Source of the DNA: a phage
Sequence record: PX880098.1
Length of the DNA: 44,688 nt
Strand: one strand, 5' to 3'
A program made the position numbers and the translations under genes. Position 1 is the stretch's first letter; each line of letters opens with the position of its first letter. The notes beneath the pieces were generated by a model. It made no database searches and was not told the origin of the DNA. It saw only the letters and a list, made by a program, of their open reading frames with translations. Shown one piece after another: positions 4,238 through 39,111 of the stretch.

Positions 4238-4698
4238 TGATGGGCTTTTTCAAAGTAACTGATGTGCCGTCGCGTCGTGTAGTCCAGTATGCCCGTGTGT
4301 CTGGCTCTAGAGAGAACGTGGTGTTTATTGAGGATGAAAGTGTACTAGGTACGCCAGTAGACGATATGCCGTTTGCGGACAAGACAGGTATCGCTTTACC
4401 CGCGGCAGGTATGCTTTACGAGATTCCGTATCTGGCGGACGCTGGTGACGTGTATTTCTCTGTGCAACCACAGGACGTTGAACTGGCAGACGGCAGCGCA
4501 ACTATCACTGTCGAGGTTAAGGCTGGTAAAGTGCCGTACGCTCTGACCTGGTACAAAGACGGTAGGGAAGTGGTTAATGCACCAGAAGAGGCTTTGTCTC
4601 TGACAGTTAATGCTGTTGGCGAATACTTCGTTAAAGTTACTGATGCCGATGGTGTAGAGGCTGTCAGCAAAGCGGCGAAGGTTACTAAGCCAGAATAA
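4237..4698 (+). CDS. Ig-like domain structural protein (possible decoration protein)
   Basis: 153-aa ORF; TAATG overlap with upstream gene; Ig-like signature YALTWYKDGREV...GEYFVKVTD. Confidence 0.5.
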   Translation: MMGFFKVTDVPSRRVVQYARVSGSRENVVFIEDESVLGTPVDDMPFADKTGIALPAAGMLYEIPYLADAGDVYFSVQPQDVELADGSATITVEVKAGKVPYALTWYKDGREVVNAPEEALSLTVNAVGEYFVKVTDADGVEAVSKAAKVTKPE

Positions 4699-4702
4699 AC
4701 TG

Positions 4703-4725
4703 AAGCCCCGAAAGGGGCTTTTTAG
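4703..4725 (+). terminator. rho-independent terminator
   Basis: AGCCCC-GAAA-GGGGCT hairpin followed by TTTTT, right after the stop at 4698. Confidence 0.7.
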
Positions 4726-10610: not shown

Positions 10611-11780
10611 ATGGCTACAACTCCTTTTAAGGGCGCGAATACCGCGCAATTCTATGTGGCGGAGACAACCCCTGGCGTAACCCCAGACAACCCTGTCTGG
10701 TCGCCGTTGCGTAACACCGGCGGTGTTCCTGCGGTAACCCGCGATGCGCTCACCTCCAACGAACTCGACGGCAGCCGTGAAACTACGTCCATCCGCACTG
10801 GTAACAAGCAGGTCAGCGGAGAGTACGCCATTGAGCTTAGCTCCCGTAGTCAGGATGATTTCCTCGCTGGTGCGATGACATCTACGTGGCAGGATGGGGT
10901 AACCTTATCCGCTGTCGGTATTACGGTAGACCCGGTAGCAAAAACTTTCACCCGCGACGCTGGCAGCTTCATTACTGACGGTGTAGAGGTCGGGGACCTT
11001 CTGTATTTTGACGCTTTAACTGGCGATAACTCTAAACCGTTCATCGTTACTGCCGTAACAGCTACTGTGGTTACAGGCGCAGGCATTCAGCACACCCTTA
11101 CCGCCGAAGGCCCTATTGAGACCGATGGAAAAACTGGCGACAAACTGGAAACCGGTAACGCATGTAAGACGTTCTCCATCCTGACATGGTTCAAAGGCCA
11201 GTGCGGGAACCCTGACGCGTACATGCTGACCAAAGGCGTGGAAATCTCCGGTTTCACCATTGAACAGGCCGTAAACGCGATGGTGACAGGAAGCTTCCCG
11301 TTCATCGGTCTGAGTCAGGAAATTCTTTCCGGCCCACCGGCAGGTTCCGACTTCTCTCAGGTCACATTCACCGATGAGCCGTTCTCATCTGTAGATGTGT
11401 CTGTGTCCGACGGTTCTACGCCGTTGCGTTGCGATACTCTGACCATCACCAACGACAACGGCGCATCTGCTCAGTTCGAACTTGGTAACAGTAGTGTTGC
11501 GTTCGTGGAGCGTGGTCGCGCGGCTAACACCTTCTCCATCTCCGGTAAGCTGTATGACATGGCGATGATTCAGAAGTTTATCAACGAGCAGCAGGTAGAG
11601 ATTAACTCTATTCTGGCTGGGGTAAACGGGGCCATGTCTTTCAGTTTGAAACGTGCGGAACTTACGGCGGTTACACCAGAGATTGGCGGACCTGAGTCAA
11701 TCACTCAGTCCATTGAAGGCCAGGCCACCGGCAATCAGTACCAGTCTTCTATTGTTATCCAGCGTATCACCTACGCATAA
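10611..11780 (+). CDS. major tail protein
   Basis: 391-aa ORF; SD AAGAGG 8 nt before ATG 10611; followed by strong terminator; position before chaperone and tape measure genes. Confidence 0.6.
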   Translation: MATTPFKGANTAQFYVAETTPGVTPDNPVWSPLRNTGGVPAVTRDALTSNELDGSRETTSIRTGNKQVSGEYAIELSSRSQDDFLAGAMTSTWQDGVTLSAVGITVDPVAKTFTRDAGSFITDGVEVGDLLYFDALTGDNSKPFIVTAVTATVVTGAGIQHTLTAEGPIETDGKTGDKLETGNACKTFSILTWFKGQCGNPDAYMLTKGVEISGFTIEQAVNAMVTGSFPFIGLSQEILSGPPAGSDFSQVTFTDEPFSSVDVSVSDGSTPLRCDTLTITNDNGASAQFELGNSSVAFVERGRAANTFSISGKLYDMAMIQKFINEQQVEINSILAGVNGAMSFSLKRAELTAVTPEIGGPESITQSIEGQATGNQYQSSIVIQRITYA

Positions 11781-11784
11781 AACT

Positions 11785-11810
11785 AAGGCCCCGAAAGGGG
11801 CCTTTTTCTT
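11785..11810. terminator. bidirectional intrinsic terminator
   Basis: AGGCCCC-GAAA-GGGGCCT followed by TTTTTCTT on plus strand; sits where plus and minus transcription converge; identical 29-mer repeated at 23352. Confidence 0.7.
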
Positions 11811-12851: not shown

Positions 12852-13978
12852 CCCAGCATCTCCGGTGAAATAGTTAAACGTGCGACCTCGCCATATTCGG
12901 CGCTATAAGTAATTACGTTTGCACTACGGCCTGACATCCATCCGCCTCGCGAGGCGTAGGCATCTTTAGCCGCTAAGGTGCGGTGTTGCTCAACAATCAT
13001 GTTACGACTTTCTACAATCTTCTGGTGGTGCAGGTGGCCTACGTGGGCGTAGCTGTAAACACTCTCGCCGAACGCTTTACGGAACTTGGCAATCATAACC
13101 GGTTCAATAGCGTCGAACCGTGCTTTATGCCCGTGATGAAAGAACAGCGTCGTTTTGCCGTGTTGCACCATCTTGTAAACATCCGGCGACGTATCGACAA
13201 TCACTCGGCTGTCTTTTGAGTATAAAGTCGTGAACATTTCCGCCAACCACACAGACCCTACAGGGTCGTGATTTCCTTGCACGATAAGCAAGCGAACATT
13301 TTTGTGTTTAACCAGCGCCATATCAACAACACGACGCACCATACGAATCATGTAGCGGACCAGTTTCTGGTAGCGCGTATCTGCATCCAACACATGACGT
13401 GACTCAGGAGTAACGGCATCCAGACTATCAAAGTGCGCGAAGTCACCAAGAAGGTTAATAACCCCTGTTCCAGCATCCGGCGCTTTCTGGAACGCCGCAT
13501 CGAACCAACGAGAAAACAGGTCTTCCGCGATCTTCATGTCCCAATCGTCGCCGCTCTCGTCGGCCCATGCCAGCATACCGAGGTGGAAATCAGATACCGT
13601 GTAAAGATTAAGTAGCTTGTCGTCGCGTTTGGCGCGAACGGCTTTAACAGGTACAACTGGCGTAATCTCTGACTTCATGCCTTCGATTACGGCTTTCATC
13701 AACTCGACCTGACGTTCGGCGTCAGTATCGGTCTTAACCCATTGCAGTTTGGTGTTACCGAACTCATCCACCAGTGACGACGTTCCTTTAATCTTGTAGC
13801 CGTCCGGCACAAGGTGACTAACGTCACGCCCGTGGCCTACACCTTTCTTAGCCAGCTTCGCTTTACGGATACGAATCACGCGGTCTGAGATGCCGTATTT
13901 ACGTGCTATATCTATATTCTTCATCCCGGCGTTCAATTCTTCCTGTAACTGTTCGTCGGTTATTTTCTTATAGGCCAT
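12848..13978 (-). CDS. calcineurin-like metallophosphoesterase with N-terminal HTH-like region
   Basis: MPE motifs SDFHLG (DxH), GDFAHFD, QGNHD, HHGH, GHLHH; N-terminal NIDIARKYGISDRVIRIRKAK resembles an HTH. Confidence 0.6.
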   Translation of the reverse strand: MAYKKITDEQLQEELNAGMKNIDIARKYGISDRVIRIRKAKLAKKGVGHGRDVSHLVPDGYKIKGTSSLVDEFGNTKLQWVKTDTDAERQVELMKAVIEGMKSEITPVVPVKAVRAKRDDKLLNLYTVSDFHLGMLAWADESGDDWDMKIAEDLFSRWFDAAFQKAPDAGTGVINLLGDFAHFDSLDAVTPESRHVLDADTRYQKLVRYMIRMVRRVVDMALVKHKNVRLLIVQGNHDPVGSVWLAEMFTTLYSKDSRVIVDTSPDVYKMVQHGKTTLFFHHGHKARFDAIEPVMIAKFRKAFGESVYSYAHVGHLHHQKIVESRNMIVEQHRTLAAKDAYASRGGWMSGRSANVITYSAEYGEVARLTISPEMLG

Positions 13979-14208: not shown

Positions 14209-14249
14209 GCTGTAGCTCCTGTTTGAGTTAACATTGTTAGTGTAAGTGA

Positions 14250-14278
14250 ATAGTATCCTATTATGTTGGGGAGTGCAA
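14250..14278 (-). promoter_or_regulatory. sigma70-like promoter, family B (TTGCAC-N17-TACTAT)
   Basis: Minus-strand reading TTGCACtccccaacataataggaTACTATTCAC, almost identical to the plus-strand copy at 36092; drives the Imm/MPE/HAD/kinase operon. Confidence 0.6.
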
Positions 14279-14385
14279 GTAATGTGTTAGAATTATTTTG
14301 CGCCTAGTGTCGCACACGAAAAGCGGGTGGTTCCCGTCTGGCGCATTAACCTTAACCAGTAACCTCTTAACCAAAGGATTAAAGA

Positions 14386-21422: not shown

Positions 21423-23354
21423 ATGTCAAGCGGATGCGGTGACGTTTTAAGCCTGGCGGATTTACAGACCGCCAAGAAACACCAGATTTTCGAGGCCGAG
21501 GTTATCACGGGTAAATCCGGCGGCGTAGCCGGTGGCGCCAATATCGATTACGCTACAAATGCCGTTACAGGGCAGACGCAGAAGACACTCCCTGCCGTGT
21601 TGCGTGACGCCGGGTTCAGACCTGCGTCTTTCACATTCGAAACAGGTGGGACGCTGGGCGCGAATGACGCCGACTTGGCGGTGTTGTGGCCAGGGCCATC
21701 TGGCGACGGCAACTATTATGCGTGGAAAGGTGCTCTGCCAAAAACTATCCCTGCATCTTCGACGCCAGCCTCGACGGGCGGAGTAGGTCAGACCGCATGG
21801 GTTGCCGTTAGCGAAGCTGCATTGCGCCGTGATTTGGCCCTAAGCACTGGCGCAGGGTTAGTTGGTACGTCTTCGGGGCGCACGGTGCAGGGCGAGGTCG
21901 ATCATTTCAAAATAGGGTATATGACCCCCGATGATTTCGGCGCGGTAGGTGATGGTGCCACCGACGACACCACGCCTTTGCAACAGGCTATTGACTATTG
22001 TTCAAGCAACGGTATCGCGTTAAGAATCCCCGCAAAATCTTATGTTTGGAATGGCGGTATTATAACTTCACCCATAACAATAATCGGTGACAGACGTCCA
22101 GATTACAATTTTAGCTCCAATTCTATGTCTAACGGGTCTGTCATAATTGGCAATTTAAGATTTTCCGCAAGCCAGGTGATTATTAAGTCACTTGGTGTGC
22201 GTAGGCCTACAGGCTCCCCCGGAGATTGTCTGGTGTTATCGACCGATAACTATGCTGGTGGGGCTTGTATTGTTCAAGATGTAGTTGCCGCGGGCCTTTC
22301 CGGTTCGGACACGTACCACAGCGTTCTTGTTGAAGGCTACGATTCCGCGCATGTATCTCAAATAACTGGCGGTTATAATCTTTTTGGCCTCGCGATTAAG
22401 TCAAGAAACGTTGTTGCCAGAGGCGTAATAACCGTAAGCTGTGATACTGGCGTTATCATTAAATCTGATAGTGAGTTCAGCACGGCAAAAAATGTGGTGC
22501 TGGACGGGCACATTAATGTCGGTAATGGTGTTTCTAGTCAAGGTGTTTGGATTTACAGCACAACCGCACAACTTGAGCGTATTACCTGCGCAAACTTACA
22601 AAGCATCGATTCCGCTATACATATGCGGATTAAGTCCGAAAACGTAGCTAATGACGTGCAAATTGTTGGGGCAAATTATTCAGGATCTACTTATGCGGAT
22701 GTGCTCGTCGAAGGCACTTCGGCTGGCACGTTGTACAATGTTAGTTTAGATAGTATAACCGCAGTAAATAGCCAGAAATTTATGGCTGCAGGTTTCTGTG
22801 AACAACTGATGGTAACAGGATTCTATGGGTCCCTGAAACCTGGCGCTCCCGCCGATACTGCGTTTGAGGTTAGCGCCGCCGTAGGGCTTTTTAGCGGGTC
22901 AAATATCCAACTAGTCCGTCAATACAGCAGTGACCTAATGACAATGAATCTCGGTAACAGTTATCTTAATAATAGATTATCATCTGTTAAGGCGAAAGTA
23001 ATAGGAAACGGCAAACCTAGGCCGGGGTATAAAGAACAGAATCTTAGCGGCGCTGCGGCTACAATGATTGTTGGCGACAGTTTGGGGCCCTCTGGGGTTG
23101 TGTCTGTCACCGCGATATCCACCGGCAGTTCATTCAGCAGTATTGCTATTAATGACGACTATGGTCAGCCGGTTAAGCCAGGTTTTCTTCTAATAATCCG
23201 AAACGCATCCGCTATCTCGTTCGTTATGAACCATAATCCAGGGTCTGGTGGAATCGCAAATAACGGGGCGGTTGGTAAGACCATTGCGGGCGGAGACACT
23301 ATAATGTACGTTTTTGACGGGACGAATTGGCGTCAAACTCCATCTATAGCTTAA
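21423..23354 (+). CDS. tailspike / receptor-binding protein with pectate-lyase-like beta-helix
   Basis: 643 aa; DDFGAVGDGATDDTTPLQQAID is the pectate-lyase-superfamily beta-helix signature common in phage depolymerases; last gene of tail block. Confidence 0.65.
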   Translation: MSSGCGDVLSLADLQTAKKHQIFEAEVITGKSGGVAGGANIDYATNAVTGQTQKTLPAVLRDAGFRPASFTFETGGTLGANDADLAVLWPGPSGDGNYYAWKGALPKTIPASSTPASTGGVGQTAWVAVSEAALRRDLALSTGAGLVGTSSGRTVQGEVDHFKIGYMTPDDFGAVGDGATDDTTPLQQAIDYCSSNGIALRIPAKSYVWNGGIITSPITIIGDRRPDYNFSSNSMSNGSVIIGNLRFSASQVIIKSLGVRRPTGSPGDCLVLSTDNYAGGACIVQDVVAAGLSGSDTYHSVLVEGYDSAHVSQITGGYNLFGLAIKSRNVVARGVITVSCDTGVIIKSDSEFSTAKNVVLDGHINVGNGVSSQGVWIYSTTAQLERITCANLQSIDSAIHMRIKSENVANDVQIVGANYSGSTYADVLVEGTSAGTLYNVSLDSITAVNSQKFMAAGFCEQLMVTGFYGSLKPGAPADTAFEVSAAVGLFSGSNIQLVRQYSSDLMTMNLGNSYLNNRLSSVKAKVIGNGKPRPGYKEQNLSGAAATMIVGDSLGPSGVVSVTAISTGSSFSSIAINDDYGQPVKPGFLLIIRNASAISFVMNHNPGSGGIANNGAVGKTIAGGDTIMYVFDGTNWRQTPSIA

Positions 23355-23358
23355 AACT

Positions 23359-23382
23359 AAGGCCCCGAAAGGGGCCTTTTCT
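23359..23382. terminator. bidirectional intrinsic terminator
   Basis: AGGCCCC-GAAA-GGGGCCT plus T run; between convergent tailspike and minus-strand operon. Confidence 0.7.
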
Positions 23383-26570: not shown

Positions 26571-26858
26571 CTAACTATAATAGTATGCTATTAGGGTGTC
26601 AACCTGTTTTATAGAGCCAACCACAAAAACATTCGCACCACGTTTACGCATCCGCTCGTGTTCACGTAACTGGTGCGGGTCTGGCTTCGTGTTTTCGTCT
26701 TTCTTCACCTCGACGAACCAGACTATGCCGCCAGGGAGAATTACCAGCAGGTCAGGAGCGCCGGAACGTCCTTCGTAGGAGAGCTTACGAACGAGGCCAC
26801 CCAGGGCCTCGAATCGCCCCTTCGCATATTTCTGTACGCGCCCCTCAGGCGTACTCAT
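26571..26858 (-). CDS. VRR-NUC domain nuclease
   Basis: PD-(D/E)xK signature GAPDLLVILPGGIVWFVEVKK; SD GAGAGGGG upstream. Confidence 0.55.
   Translation of the reverse strand: MSTPEGRVQKYAKGRFEALGGLVRKLSYEGRSGAPDLLVILPGGIVWFVEVKKDENTKPDPHQLREHERMRKRGANVFVVGSIKQVDTLIAYYYS
26574..26602 (-). promoter_or_regulatory. sigma70-like promoter, family A (TTGACA-N17-TATAGT)
   Basis: Minus-strand reading TTGACAccctaatagcatactatTATAGT with AT-rich upstream region; contains ATAG-N4-CTAT. Confidence 0.6.
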
Positions 26859-29986: not shown

Positions 29987-30041
29987 TTCTCGATTCCTCA
30001 GTTTTCAGTTTACTCCGGGAGCTGCCCGGCCAGTGATTAGA

Positions 30042-30070
30042 ACTATAATAGCTAACTATTCAGGTGTCAA
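30042..30070 (-). promoter_or_regulatory. sigma70-like promoter, family A (TTGACA-N17-TATAGT)
   Basis: Minus-strand reading TTGACAcctgaatagttagctatTATAGT; near-identical to the copy at 32491. Confidence 0.6.
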
Positions 30071-30074
30071 CACT

Positions 30075-32459: not shown

Positions 32460-32490
32460 TTGTTTCTCTCCTCTCGTTTAGTATGGGCTA

Positions 32491-32520
32491 ACTATAATAG
32501 CTAACTATTCATGTTGTCAA
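32491..32520 (-). promoter_or_regulatory. sigma70-like promoter, family A (TTGACA-N18-TATAGT)
   Basis: Minus-strand reading TTGACAacatgaatagttagctatTATAGT; divergent from the HTH gene. Confidence 0.6.
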
Positions 32521-35998: not shown

Positions 35999-36026
35999 GG
36001 GCAGGCTTAAGGCCTGCCCTTTAGTT
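35999..36026 (+). terminator. intrinsic terminator in divergent control region
   Basis: GGGCAGGC-TTAAG-GCCTGCCC followed by TTTAGTT. Confidence 0.6.
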
Positions 36027-36091: not shown

Positions 36092-36120
36092 TTGCACGCC
36101 CCAACATAATAGGATACTAT
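36092..36120 (+). promoter_or_regulatory. sigma70-like promoter, family B (TTGCAC-N17-TACTAT)
   Basis: TTGCACgccccaacataataggaTACTATTCAC; contains ATAG-N4-CTAT; upstream of the PAPS-reductase-like gene. Confidence 0.6.
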
Positions 36121-36154
36121 TCACTTATAGTGACGAGACAGAGGAGTGATGGTC

Positions 36155-36916
36155 ATGAGCAAGCCGGTAATAGCGGTCTGGTTTTCGTGTGGTGCTGCCA
36201 GTGCGGTAGCTGCAAAAATAACTATCGAGAAATACAGTCATACTCATGATGTGCGTGTGCTTAACAACCCGGTGGCAGAGGAGGACGCTGACAACATACG
36301 TTTTCTTCATGATGTTGAAAATTGGATAGGTGTGAAAATTGAATCAGTAATTAACCCTATGTTCCCGAACGCCAGCGCTGTAGAGGTCTGGGACCATCAG
36401 CGTTATATGTCCGGCATTGCTGGAGCACCATGTACGAAGGCACTTAAGAAGCTCGCCAGAAAGCATTGGGAGCAATCAAATCGCTGTGACCATATCGTGC
36501 TTGGTTTTACTGCTGATGAGGCGCATCGCGCAGATAATTTCGTCAAAAACGAAAGGCGCAGTTTGATTCCAGTTCTGATTGAAGCCGGATACACAAAAGG
36601 AGACTGCTTTCGAATCCTTCTGGAGAACGGCATTCGACTTCCTCGTATTTATCACTTGGGTTACCCAAACGCGAACTGCATAGGATGTGTAAAAGCCACA
36701 TCTCCAACCTACTGGAATCTTGTCCGTCGCGTTCATCCTGAGGTATTTGTCCAACGTGCAGAGCAATCACGACGATTGGGTGTTCGTCTTGTTAGATATT
36801 CCGGAGAGCGCATCTATCTCGACGAGTTGCCGCCAGACGCAGTTGGCCGCCCAATAAAAAGTCTTGATTTTGAATGTGGGATTTTCTGTAAACCAGCAGA
36901 TGAGGATGAAGAATGA
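36155..36916 (+). CDS. PAPS reductase-like / PP-loop ATP pyrophosphatase superfamily protein with C-terminal Cys pairs
   Basis: N-terminal VWFSCGAAS at the position of a PP-loop SGGxDS; C-terminal CIGC and CGIFC; start ATG 36155 chosen 8 nt after GAGGAG. Confidence 0.5.
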   Translation: MSKPVIAVWFSCGAASAVAAKITIEKYSHTHDVRVLNNPVAEEDADNIRFLHDVENWIGVKIESVINPMFPNASAVEVWDHQRYMSGIAGAPCTKALKKLARKHWEQSNRCDHIVLGFTADEAHRADNFVKNERRSLIPVLIEAGYTKGDCFRILLENGIRLPRIYHLGYPNANCIGCVKATSPTYWNLVRRVHPEVFVQRAEQSRRLGVRLVRYSGERIYLDELPPDAVGRPIKSLDFECGIFCKPADEDEE

Positions 36917-37254
36917 AAACTGATATCACCGAACTGACTCAGAGAGAGCTTTATGCAAAAGTTGAGAAGCAAGCTCATTCCCTTCGAGGAAATCCATTTG
37001 AATATATGGTAATAACCGGGATGTGTCCTGTGAACGTTGTCGAATTACATGCTAAGAAAATACAATCCTTACTAACAGATCAAATTGGTTATAAAGAGGA
37101 GATTGCAGCACTCCGCCAGCGCATCGCTGAGCTGGAGTCACGCACCGTGACTTCCTATTGCGATACCGACAACCACCAGTTCGAAAGACTCAGCGACCAC
37201 AAACATCACTTCATCAACGGCACTTGCGTAGAGTGCCTGGCTAAAAGTGAATAA
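36913..37254 (+). CDS. hypothetical protein (113 aa) with C-terminal Cys/His cluster
   Basis: ATGA-coupled; coiled-coil middle; CDTDNHQF...HKHHFINGTCVEC suggests metal binding. Confidence 0.5.
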   Translation: MKTDITELTQRELYAKVEKQAHSLRGNPFEYMVITGMCPVNVVELHAKKIQSLLTDQIGYKEEIAALRQRIAELESRTVTSYCDTDNHQFERLSDHKHHFINGTCVECLAKSE

Positions 37255-37950: not shown

Positions 37951-37981
37951 TCATTTACACAAACGAGAGGAGAGACAGAAG

Positions 37982-38131
37982 ATGGTTACTTTGATGGTTA
38001 TGGAATTCGAAAACAGCGTAGCAACTTACCGCGAGATGACTATGGCGCAGGCGTATCACCTGGCCTCAAACGGCAACTTCTACAAGGCGCAAATCATCAA
38101 TGAGTTCGGGGTAATTGACTATGAATTTTAG
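37982..38131 (+). CDS. small protein (49 aa), absent from ORF track
   Basis: ATG preceded by the conserved 21-nt leader AAACGAGAGGAGAGACAGAAG; 49 uninterrupted codons. Confidence 0.5.
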   Translation: MVTLMVMEFENSVATYREMTMAQAYHLASNGNFYKAQIINEFGVIDYEF

Positions 38132-38393
38132 CAGCTACACCGTGACCGTTGATTTTGAGGGGCTGGAGTTGCCCCTCCCAAACAACTATCGGTATATAAC
38201 CCGTGACCGTTTCGGTTTTATTCAGGGGTGGCGGGACAAACCAACAGACACTGAGTTCGGGATGTCAGGCGGAGAAGAGTTGCCGATTACTTTCGGGCAT
38301 CAGAGTAGTAATGAAGAACTTAAAACTGTGATTCGTAAGTACCGCCGCCGCGGTAACACCGGGCTTATAGCTATAACCGGCGTTGTTGAGTAA
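38121..38393 (+). CDS. hypothetical protein (90 aa)
   Basis: ATG 38121 overlapping upstream stop; listed ORF begins at TTG 38115. Confidence 0.5.
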   Translation: MNFSSYTVTVDFEGLELPLPNNYRYITRDRFGFIQGWRDKPTDTEFGMSGGEELPITFGHQSSNEELKTVIRKYRRRGNTGLIAITGVVE

Positions 38394-38412
38394 ACGAGAG
38401 GAGAGACAGAAG

Positions 38413-39111
38413 ATGAGTAACAAAAACGAAGTATTCGAGTACCTGATTGACCAGTTACGGCAGCACGTAAATAGCCACCCATACAAGCAACAGTGCGAAG
38501 ACCTGGCGCATGAGGTGCAGTCACTCAAGAATCAGTTACGTGATGCGTCGGCGCTGGTGGCGGAGTTGCAGGAAGACAACATTAAGAAATCCGACCATAT
38601 ATCACATCTGACCGGGCAATTGTCCGCGTATCGCAATGATGCGTTGCGCTTTCAAGCGCAAGTCGGGGACCTGGTAAAACGACTGGCTAAGGCCACTGGT
38701 GACGAGTCTGTGCAGATTAAGGAGTTGACGCTCGCGCTAGATAGTTTAGATAACGAGGTTATGTGTCTTCGTTCAATCGTTTACCTGGACCCTAAAGGCG
38801 CGATTGGGTACATCCGGCGGGCAAATAGTGCAATGACTGACACCCTGCGCCGCCAATACCTTAGCAAAGCACTTGAGGAACTCGGATGTAAGGATGCGCC
38901 AGAACAATCCGGTTGCCGAAAGGAAGACGTGCAGGAATGTGCGCACGATTGGGTGCTAGATGAAAAAGGGGACTACTTCATTTGCGCTAAATGCGGTAAG
39001 CAAGAATCGGAATTGAGCGATTGCCAACACGCTAATACCGTCGGTTTGCGCAAAGGCTTTGCGCCGGGTTTTACTAAAAAGTGTCTTGATTGCGGGGCTA
39101 AACTGAAATGA
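38413..39111 (+). CDS. hypothetical protein with N-terminal coiled coil and C-terminal zinc-ribbon-like Cys pairs
   Basis: Preceded by identical 21-nt leader; Cys pairs CAKCGK and CLDCGAK near the C-terminus; 232 aa from ATG 38413. Confidence 0.55.
   Translation: MSNKNEVFEYLIDQLRQHVNSHPYKQQCEDLAHEVQSLKNQLRDASALVAELQEDNIKKSDHISHLTGQLSAYRNDALRFQAQVGDLVKRLAKATGDESVQIKELTLALDSLDNEVMCLRSIVYLDPKGAIGYIRRANSAMTDTLRRQYLSKALEELGCKDAPEQSGCRKEDVQECAHDWVLDEKGDYFICAKCGKQESELSDCQHANTVGLRKGFAPGFTKKCLDCGAKLK

Follow-up and report, generated by a model that had tools for sequence, protein, structure and literature searches.

The gene at positions 36155 to 36916 (plus strand) of a 44,688-nucleotide (nt) phage genome (sequence record PX880098.1, read on one strand and hereafter called the window) encodes a 253-amino-acid (aa) protein of the PptA/NinC type, i.e., a phage PP-loop protein with the fold of 3'-phosphoadenosine-5'-phosphosulfate (PAPS) reductase, as identified from its open reading frame (ORF), profile matches, alignments, and a structure model. 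A relative with ~45% identity to this protein is present in a Protein Data Bank (PDB) entry together with the cysteine desulfurase IscS of Escherichia coli, and the window protein therefore most likely uses host sulfur on a nucleic acid rather than for sulfate assimilation. More specifically, we regard the chances as evenly balanced that it is a stand-alone, IscS-dependent sulfurtransferase of the DndC/SspD type, which probably marks the phage DNA against phosphorothioate-based defense. The family is known but barely published, and the window gene adds a member to it. The genome is that of a Kagunavirus/Guernseyvirinae-like E. coli siphophage (its tail region is ~92% identical to, e.g., that of vB_EcoS_fPoEco01), and E. 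coli is likely to be its host.

PptA and IscS in PDB entry 21fy

A sequence search of the PDB returned a sole close relative of the window protein, chain C of entry 21fy, which is named "PptA" (E = 6e-48 over the full length; E = 5e-62 in a profile search). Residues 3 to 247 of the window protein matched residues 25 to 263 of PptA, with ~45% identity in the local HMMER alignment and 41% in a multiple alignment. The two proteins share the FSCGA loop and all seven conserved cysteines, including C93, C151, the CxxC pair, and the C-x-x-x-C of the tail. Over the aligned part, PptA agrees at 100% identity with QGH73774, a hypothetical protein of Vibrio phage vB_VhaP_VH-5, the gene for which directly follows the phage RNA polymerase gene. 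No other VH-5 protein was found in the PDB when ~2,900 aa of concatenated VH-5 ORFs were used as the query. With E. coli IscS as the query, the wild-type IscS sequence was recovered from 1p3w and 21fy and from no other entry (four chains overall), and 21fy holds two PptA chains. From these chain counts we infer that 21fy comprises two IscS and two PptA chains, and the simplest reading of the sequences in the entry is an IscS2-PptA2 complex. The name PptA might allude to "dpt" (DNA phosphorothioation), but this is a guess of ours.

The shared entry with IscS thus concerns a ~45%-identical homolog and not the window protein itself. Both proteins fall in the same length class, and both are encoded by solitary genes of lytic phages. 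The phages differ: VH-5 is an Autographiviridae podovirus of another host genus, whereas the window phage is a Kagunavirus-like siphovirus, and the VH-5 gene follows an RNA polymerase gene, whereas the window gene stands first after an early promoter.

If the window protein acts as proposed, its gene would be transcribed first from the conserved early promoter, and the product would dock on host IscS and receive persulfide sulfur. The sulfur acceptors would be C93 and C175-x-x-C178 as a probable Fe-S site, C241 of the mobile tail as a carrier or nucleophile, or both. By means of its nucleotide-binding loop, the protein would then pass the sulfur on to a nucleic acid. The target would most probably be the phage DNA backbone (phosphorothioation, of the kind performed by DndC and SspD), and the infecting genome would then bear the "self" mark of DndFGH- or SspE-type defenses.

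Family membership and conservation

The profile of PHROG 424, annotated as PAPS reductase, matched residues 3 to 250 of the window protein (E = 1.3e-40). The same profile is matched by PptA, lambda NinC, and the proteins of Huey, Barriga, and LESphi4, and also by E. coli CysH. More than 7,300 homologs of the window protein, mostly without names, were present in a collection of 5.8 billion proteins, and the nearest of them (80 to 88% identity) belong to enterobacterial prophages.

Conservation was assessed at two depths. Among 48 close homologs (62 to 87% identity to the window protein), W9-F10-S11-G13-A14-A15-S16-A17-V18, C175, C178, and C241 are invariant, and C12, C93, and C245 are conserved in at least 90% of the sequences. 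Little or no variation is seen in the segments WFSCGAASAVAA, GAPCT..LKK.AR, VLGFT.DE..R, GYPNANCIGCVKATSPTYWN, and ECGIFC. Judging from this alignment, these homologs are under strong purifying selection. The preliminary description of this stretch had singled out the motifs FSCGAAS, CIGC, and CGIFC, and all three were recovered in the ORF and are kept in the homologs. FSCGAAS (residues 10 to 16; 36182 to 36202) is the nucleotide-binding loop, an S-x-G-x-x-S variant of SGGxDS that is invariant in the 48 homologs. CIGC (C175 to C178, within NC[IV]GC[VLI]K; 36677 to 36688) is likewise invariant among them and is retained in distant phage clades at a level of at least 90%. CGIFC (C241 to C245; 36875 to 36889) lies on a C-terminal tail that is predicted to be disordered (predicted local distance difference test score of <50 for residues 240 to 253 of the structure model). 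C93 (36431 to 36433), located in GAPCT..LKK, is conserved family-wide and is a candidate third cluster ligand. All of these motifs are on the plus strand.

The wide alignment comprised PptA, homologs from Pseudomonas, Nitrincola, and Vibrio, the proteins of E. coli phage Huey and mycobacteriophage Barriga, lambda NinC, and E. coli CysH. Residues S11, G13, R49, L97-K98, G117, and R125 are invariant in it, NinC and CysH included. At least 90% conserved, and present in essentially every phage protein, are S16, C93, E122, N174, C175, G177, C178, and C241. The four cysteines of this set (C93, C175, C178, and C241) maintain this level across clades down to 22 to 26% identity, and C12, C151, and C245 are restricted to the PptA-like clade.

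A protein that hijacks or inhibits IscS, and so blocks or redirects host sulfur trafficking (phosphorothioate modification, Fe-S assembly, or tRNA thiolation) to take over the host or counter its defenses while itself catalyzing little or nothing, would also account for the deposition of a homolog with IscS, for a solitary gene without partners, and for a place directly after an early promoter, which is a typical site for takeover factors. We consider this explanation quite unlikely, as the loop, R49, K98, E122, R125, and the four cysteines are kept over thousands of homologs, to ~25% identity; such a set is the signature of an enzyme active site and not of a binding surface. A block of IscS alone, moreover, would presumably not shield unmodified phage DNA from DndFGH-type restriction.

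Lambda NinC is a distant cousin with only 22 to 25% identity to the window protein. In addition to the match to PHROG 424, the two have in common the S-x-G loop, C-T..LK, [AT]-[DE]-E..R (ADE in both), and NC..C.K. NinC differs in its SGGRTS loop, its longer C-terminal region, and the lack of C12 and C151. Like the window gene, ninC and the genes for other PHROG 424 proteins are dispensable early-region genes whose function is not known. For one longer homolog (P0013, 363 aa), a domain fusion was weighed, but we judge that its extension rather reflects read-through to the following gene than a recognizable domain.

Genomic neighborhood

We compared 86 loci (80 IMG/VR contigs together with isolates, prophages, and the window) by all-against-all clustering of the ORFs within 3.5 kb of the family member. 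No conserved partner gene emerged: no neighbor family was present in more than 7 of the 86 loci, and neither an ABC/ORC-type ATPase nor DndE/SspB was found among the recurring neighbor clusters. A Pfam scan of 147 immediate neighbors identified DNA polymerase A (6 cases), 5'-3' exonuclease (4), glutaredoxin (3, each at a different locus), and C5 DNA methylase (2), as well as primase-helicases (AAA_25, 5; DUF5906, 4; DnaB_C, 3; Toprim; and RepB), PD-(D/E)XK nucleases, endonuclease I, and the small terminase. Within a few genes of the PptA-like gene, a C5-cytosine DNA methyltransferase is encoded at 5 of the 86 loci (L056, 1704 to 3086, and four other IMG/VR loci). In prophages, the gene lies in early recombination operons that also encode Erf, SSB, exonuclease, RdgC, and NinX. 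Taken together, the clustering, the Pfam scan, and the prophage context indicate that the gene stands alone, is highly mobile, and resides in regions of DNA metabolism or in early variable regions. In Mycobacterium phage Barriga (L093, 1489 to 2828), the PAPS-reductase-like gene overlaps a downstream gene for a NifU-like Fe-S scaffold, which independently ties the family to the IscS/Fe-S machinery.

Comparison with assimilatory CysH

The possibility that the window protein is a genuine adenosine-5'-phosphosulfate (APS) or PAPS reductase, i.e., the product of an auxiliary metabolic gene (AMG) that boosts host sulfate assimilation, draws on several resemblances. The S-x-G loop and the C-terminal E-C-G-[IL] align with SSFG and ECGLH of CysH, and an apparently flexible C-terminal tail bearing E-C-G-[IL] is common to the window protein and CysH (PDB 1sur and 2goy). 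The PHROG 424 annotation and the match of CysH to that profile point the same way, as do the glutaredoxin neighbors at three loci and the practice of virome papers, which treat such genes as cysH AMGs (PMC13369170; bioRxiv 10.64898/2026.02.18.706556). These papers give no functional data, however, and the direct comparisons did not favor a reductase. The Pfam model PF01507 (PAPS_reduct) scored 14.1 bits, below its gathering cutoff of 22.5 bits (E = 0.047), and no NCBIfam model, CysH and APS reductase included, matched at E <= 1. Pairwise BLASTP against E. coli CysH gave E = 0.088 (133-aa local alignment, 19% identity), and identity in the full alignment was 16%. E240-C241-G242-I243 aligns with ECGL of ECGLH, but the His is replaced by Phe, which is followed by an extra Cys, and CIGC aligns with ..SVGDTHT.. 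of E. coli CysH, a segment without cysteines. The window protein also differs in its additional conserved C12, C93, and C151, in its setting within phage DNA metabolism, and in the deposition of a homolog with IscS; a stable complex with IscS would be unexpected for CysH. No cys genes of sulfate assimilation were found near family members in the 86 loci, and the E. coli host has its own cysH, adjoining cysI. A role in sulfate assimilation, which the preliminary description had already set aside, is thus very unlikely, given the failure of the CysH profile models, the 16% identity, and the absence of cys neighbors.

The same description had called the nucleotide-binding loop degenerate. That characterization does not hold, as the loop is invariant across the family and is similar to the S-x-G loop of CysH itself. 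Because FSCGAASAV of the window protein resembles SSFGIQAAV of CysH, we interpret it as a conserved variant rather than a decayed PP-loop.

The two C-terminal Cys pairs had further been proposed to hold a metal or Fe-S center. C175-x-x-C178 is kept family-wide along with C93, with which it probably forms an Fe-S site; the pair occupies the CxxC position of Fe-S APS reductases, and we read the C93 plus C175-x-x-C178 pattern as similar to the cluster ligands of those enzymes and of TtuA/TtcA. The two pairs are not equivalent, however. Because the tail is modeled as disordered and C241 aligns with the catalytic cysteine of ECGLH, C241 more likely moves with the tail and carries sulfur or acts as a nucleophile than contributes one half of a fixed metal site.

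This arrangement of cysteines also bears on the possibility that the protein, with sulfur from IscS, thiolates RNA or a free nucleotide instead of DNA. Such an enzyme, of the TtcA/TtuA/NcsA/ThiI kind, would act on tRNA of the host or the phage or on some other small substrate and could tune translation or evade tRNA-targeting defenses. One Cys plus CxxC as cluster ligands beside a nucleotide loop is the TtuA/TtcA layout, and the family shows three conserved cysteines in just that arrangement. In E. coli, tRNA thiolation draws its sulfur from IscS, and the presence of IscS in 21fy fits equally well. Several observations nevertheless make RNA thiolation unlikely. No tRNA-thiolase family of Pfam or NCBIfam was matched, and the loop lacks the Asp of SGGxDS needed for base adenylation, so that the combination of SGGxDS loop, three cluster cysteines, and family-model match that marks the [4Fe-4S] PP-loop tRNA thiolases (TtcA/TtuA/NcsA) was not found. 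The structure model shows a single domain of 253 aa with no RNA-binding domain, the neighbors are replication, recombination, and methylase genes rather than tRNA genes, and the sole match to a defense-family model is to SspD.

Comparison with DndC and SspD

Among defense-system models, the window protein matched only SspD of PADLOC (E = 4.5e-7, 27.9 bits, residues 13 to 202), for which, as for the other PADLOC models, there is no curated cutoff. The corresponding scores were 42.5 bits for PptA, 52.2 bits for NinC, and 14.3 bits for E. coli CysH, which served as the control. DndC and SspD have the PAPS-reductase fold in common with the window protein and themselves depend on a cysteine desulfurase (DndA, IscS, or SspA), and DndC has Fe-S cysteines. 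Unlike the window protein, they are larger, are encoded in operons with DndD/E or SspB/C, and carry a canonical SGGKDS ATP-pyrophosphatase loop. DNA phosphorothioation in E. coli relies on IscS as its desulfurase, and IscS interacts with DptC/DndC (PMC3519819). According to work cited in PMC11662687 and PMC8569181, DndA assembles DndC as an Fe-S protein. JSS1_004, the known anti-Dnd protein, is an unrelated kinase.

The preliminary description had offered a host-takeover or nucleic-acid-directed role. As a whole it was only partly supported; a sulfur role directed at nucleic acid or defense is the best reading of the 21fy entry with IscS, the SspD scores, and the DNA-metabolism neighbors.

A number of points weigh against phosphorothioation of phage DNA by the window protein. 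The PADLOC models of DndC and BrxP do not match it. Its loop, S11-C-G-A-A-S16, is without the Asp of SGGxDS throughout the family and is nearer to the CysH loop. Since DndC and other ATP-pyrophosphatases use this Asp, ATP chemistry of a simple DndC-like kind is disfavored. The partners for DNA binding and ATP hydrolysis (DndDE or SspBC) that DndC and SspD need were not found in the 86 loci, and a DNA-binding domain is not evident in the window protein. The link through 21fy consists of two sequences in one entry, and a complex with IscS is equally compatible with tRNA thiolation or IscS inhibition. Literature searches found no publication describing PptA. Two further points concern a phage protein implicated in escape from Dnd (see below): it was not among our tblastn matches and may represent a different branch, and the transfer that conferred escape involved two genes at once (Piel et al., preprint 10.1101/2021.05.05.442762).

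The absence of the ATP-pyrophosphatase Asp counts at the same time against chemistry of another kind, i.e., an adenine-nucleotide alpha-hydrolase reaction without sulfur (amidation or nucleobase conjugation, QueC/Cap9- or TilS-like) acting on DNA or on a defense signal. The conserved cysteine set and the shared entry with IscS indicate sulfur, and no 7-deazaguanine or amidotransferase genes were found among the Pfam-scanned neighbors. We consider such chemistry highly improbable.

Phage PAPS reductases in defense and in virome surveys

A precedent for an anti-defense function is p0018 of Vibrio phage 44E38.1, in which Dam is joined to a PAPS-reductase domain in one protein (Piel et al. 2022, preprint 10.1101/2021.05.05.442762). 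When the fusion gene and an adjacent gene were moved into a sister Vibrio phage, that phage escaped host Dnd (preprint 10.1101/2021.05.05.442762). Like the window gene, p0018 places a phage PAPS-reductase-type domain in a variable anti-defense slot, and it differs in its methylase fusion. Aca-regulated phage PAPS reductases have been found and proposed to be anti-defense DNA modifiers (2026, Nucleic Acids Research, PMC13551039), and a 2024 paper states that phage PAPS-reductase homologs, including that of lambda, await investigation (PMC11437467).

Few AMGs are reported from virome surveys as often as phage "PAPS reductase" genes, and virome papers have read them as such without functional tests (PMC13369170; bioRxiv 10.64898/2026.02.18.706556). 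For the PptA/PHROG 424-type family, the annotation as a booster of sulfur assimilation is probably wrong, because the CysH models failed, the likeness to SspD exceeds that of CysH, the genes occupy DNA-metabolism or anti-defense slots, and a relative was deposited with IscS. The main value of the window gene is that it offers a concrete, testable case against routine "cysH AMG" annotation. We propose, tentatively and with some doubt, that a lone 253-aa protein with a noncanonical loop and no ATPase or DNA-binding partner could, together with host IscS, suffice for a sulfur mark on phage DNA, either phosphorothioate or a thio-modification not yet described. In that case, the "cysH / PAPS reductase" AMGs of viromes, which number in the thousands, would be largely counter-defense DNA-modification enzymes and not sulfur-metabolism genes.

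An imported two-gene cassette

The window gene is part of a cassette that is absent from the closest relatives of the phage. Homology (blastn) to the relative vB_VIPECOTPH05A ends at 36157, inside the start codon, and restarts at 37248, and the imported unit is therefore 1.09 kb long (36158 to 37247, plus strand) and contains exactly two genes, the PptA-like gene and ORF113. In vB_VIPECOTPH05A, small hypothetical genes occupy this slot. Megablast with the PptA-like gene gave 0 matches in 50,697 phage records and 5,426 complete E. coli genomes, and the flanks of the cassette match hundreds of relatives. As a recent import seen in no sequenced relative, the cassette is a candidate host-range determinant on E. 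coli with Dnd, Ssp, or BREX type 4.

ORF113 (36913 to 37254, plus strand; 113 aa) overlaps the PptA-like gene through an ATGA start/stop, by which the two genes are predicted to be translationally coupled. Its product combines a coiled-coil region with a C-terminus rich in Cys and His and matches only phrog_1138, weakly; a neighbor gene at one other locus (L004) also touches phrog_1138 weakly. No homolog of ORF113 was found beside the other 85 family members examined.

For the PptA-like gene itself, three in-frame starts are available (GTG at 36146, ATG at 36149, and ATG at 36155). ATG 36155 is the best of these because a Shine-Dalgarno sequence read as AGAGGAG (36140 to 36146, plus strand) lies 8 nt upstream and the N-termini of homologs (MSKP/MKET..IAVWF) agree with it.

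Promoter-like elements, hairpins, and repeats

Upstream of the gene, the plus strand carries a promoter-like element that occurs in repeated copies ("family B"; 36092 to 36120) and consists of TTGCAC (36092 to 36097), a 17-nt spacer, and TACTAT (36115 to 36120). The element is base-for-base identical in vB_VIPECOTPH05A. It matches 7 of 12 consensus positions, and in a generic sigma-70 scan it fell below the threshold and was not reported. A second copy of the 34-nt element, with 2 mismatches, is located at 14247 to 14280 on the minus strand (0 expected by chance), upstream of minus-strand genes ending at 13978. A third copy of the element (TTGCA[CG]-N17-TACTAT) is located at ~3135, also on the minus strand, and has the same 5' untranslated region. 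Behind this third copy is a 71-aa minus-strand ORF (3092 to 2877), which is antisense among plus-strand morphogenesis genes and moron-like.

The promoter-like element before the PptA-like gene is itself preceded by a terminator-like, GC-rich hairpin with a T run (35999 to 36019, plus strand), the sequence of which is kept in a relative phage (L001). This hairpin would insulate the rightward early operon, which diverges from the helicase-primase module. From the conserved element and the preceding hairpin, it follows that the PptA-like gene is the first cistron of the rightward early operon; the position that the preliminary description assigned to it, first after the promoter at 36092, was borne out by the ORF lying directly downstream of the conserved element.

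Other repeats were noted in the window. A second family (~26573 to 26603, 30041 to 30071, and 32490 to 32514) consists of minus-strand, near-consensus sigma-70 promoters (TTGACA, 17-nt spacer, TATAGT) that precede leftward replication genes. A perfect 24-nt direct repeat, AAACGAGAGGAGAGACAGAAGATG, comprising a ribosome-binding site and ATG, stands before two successive early genes (37961 to 37984 and 38392 to 38415). Finally, a GC hairpin with a T run, AAGGCCCCGAAAGGGGCCTTTT, is present in three copies (4692 to 4723, 11775 to 11806, and 23349 to 23380), which are probably shared intrinsic terminators at module boundaries.

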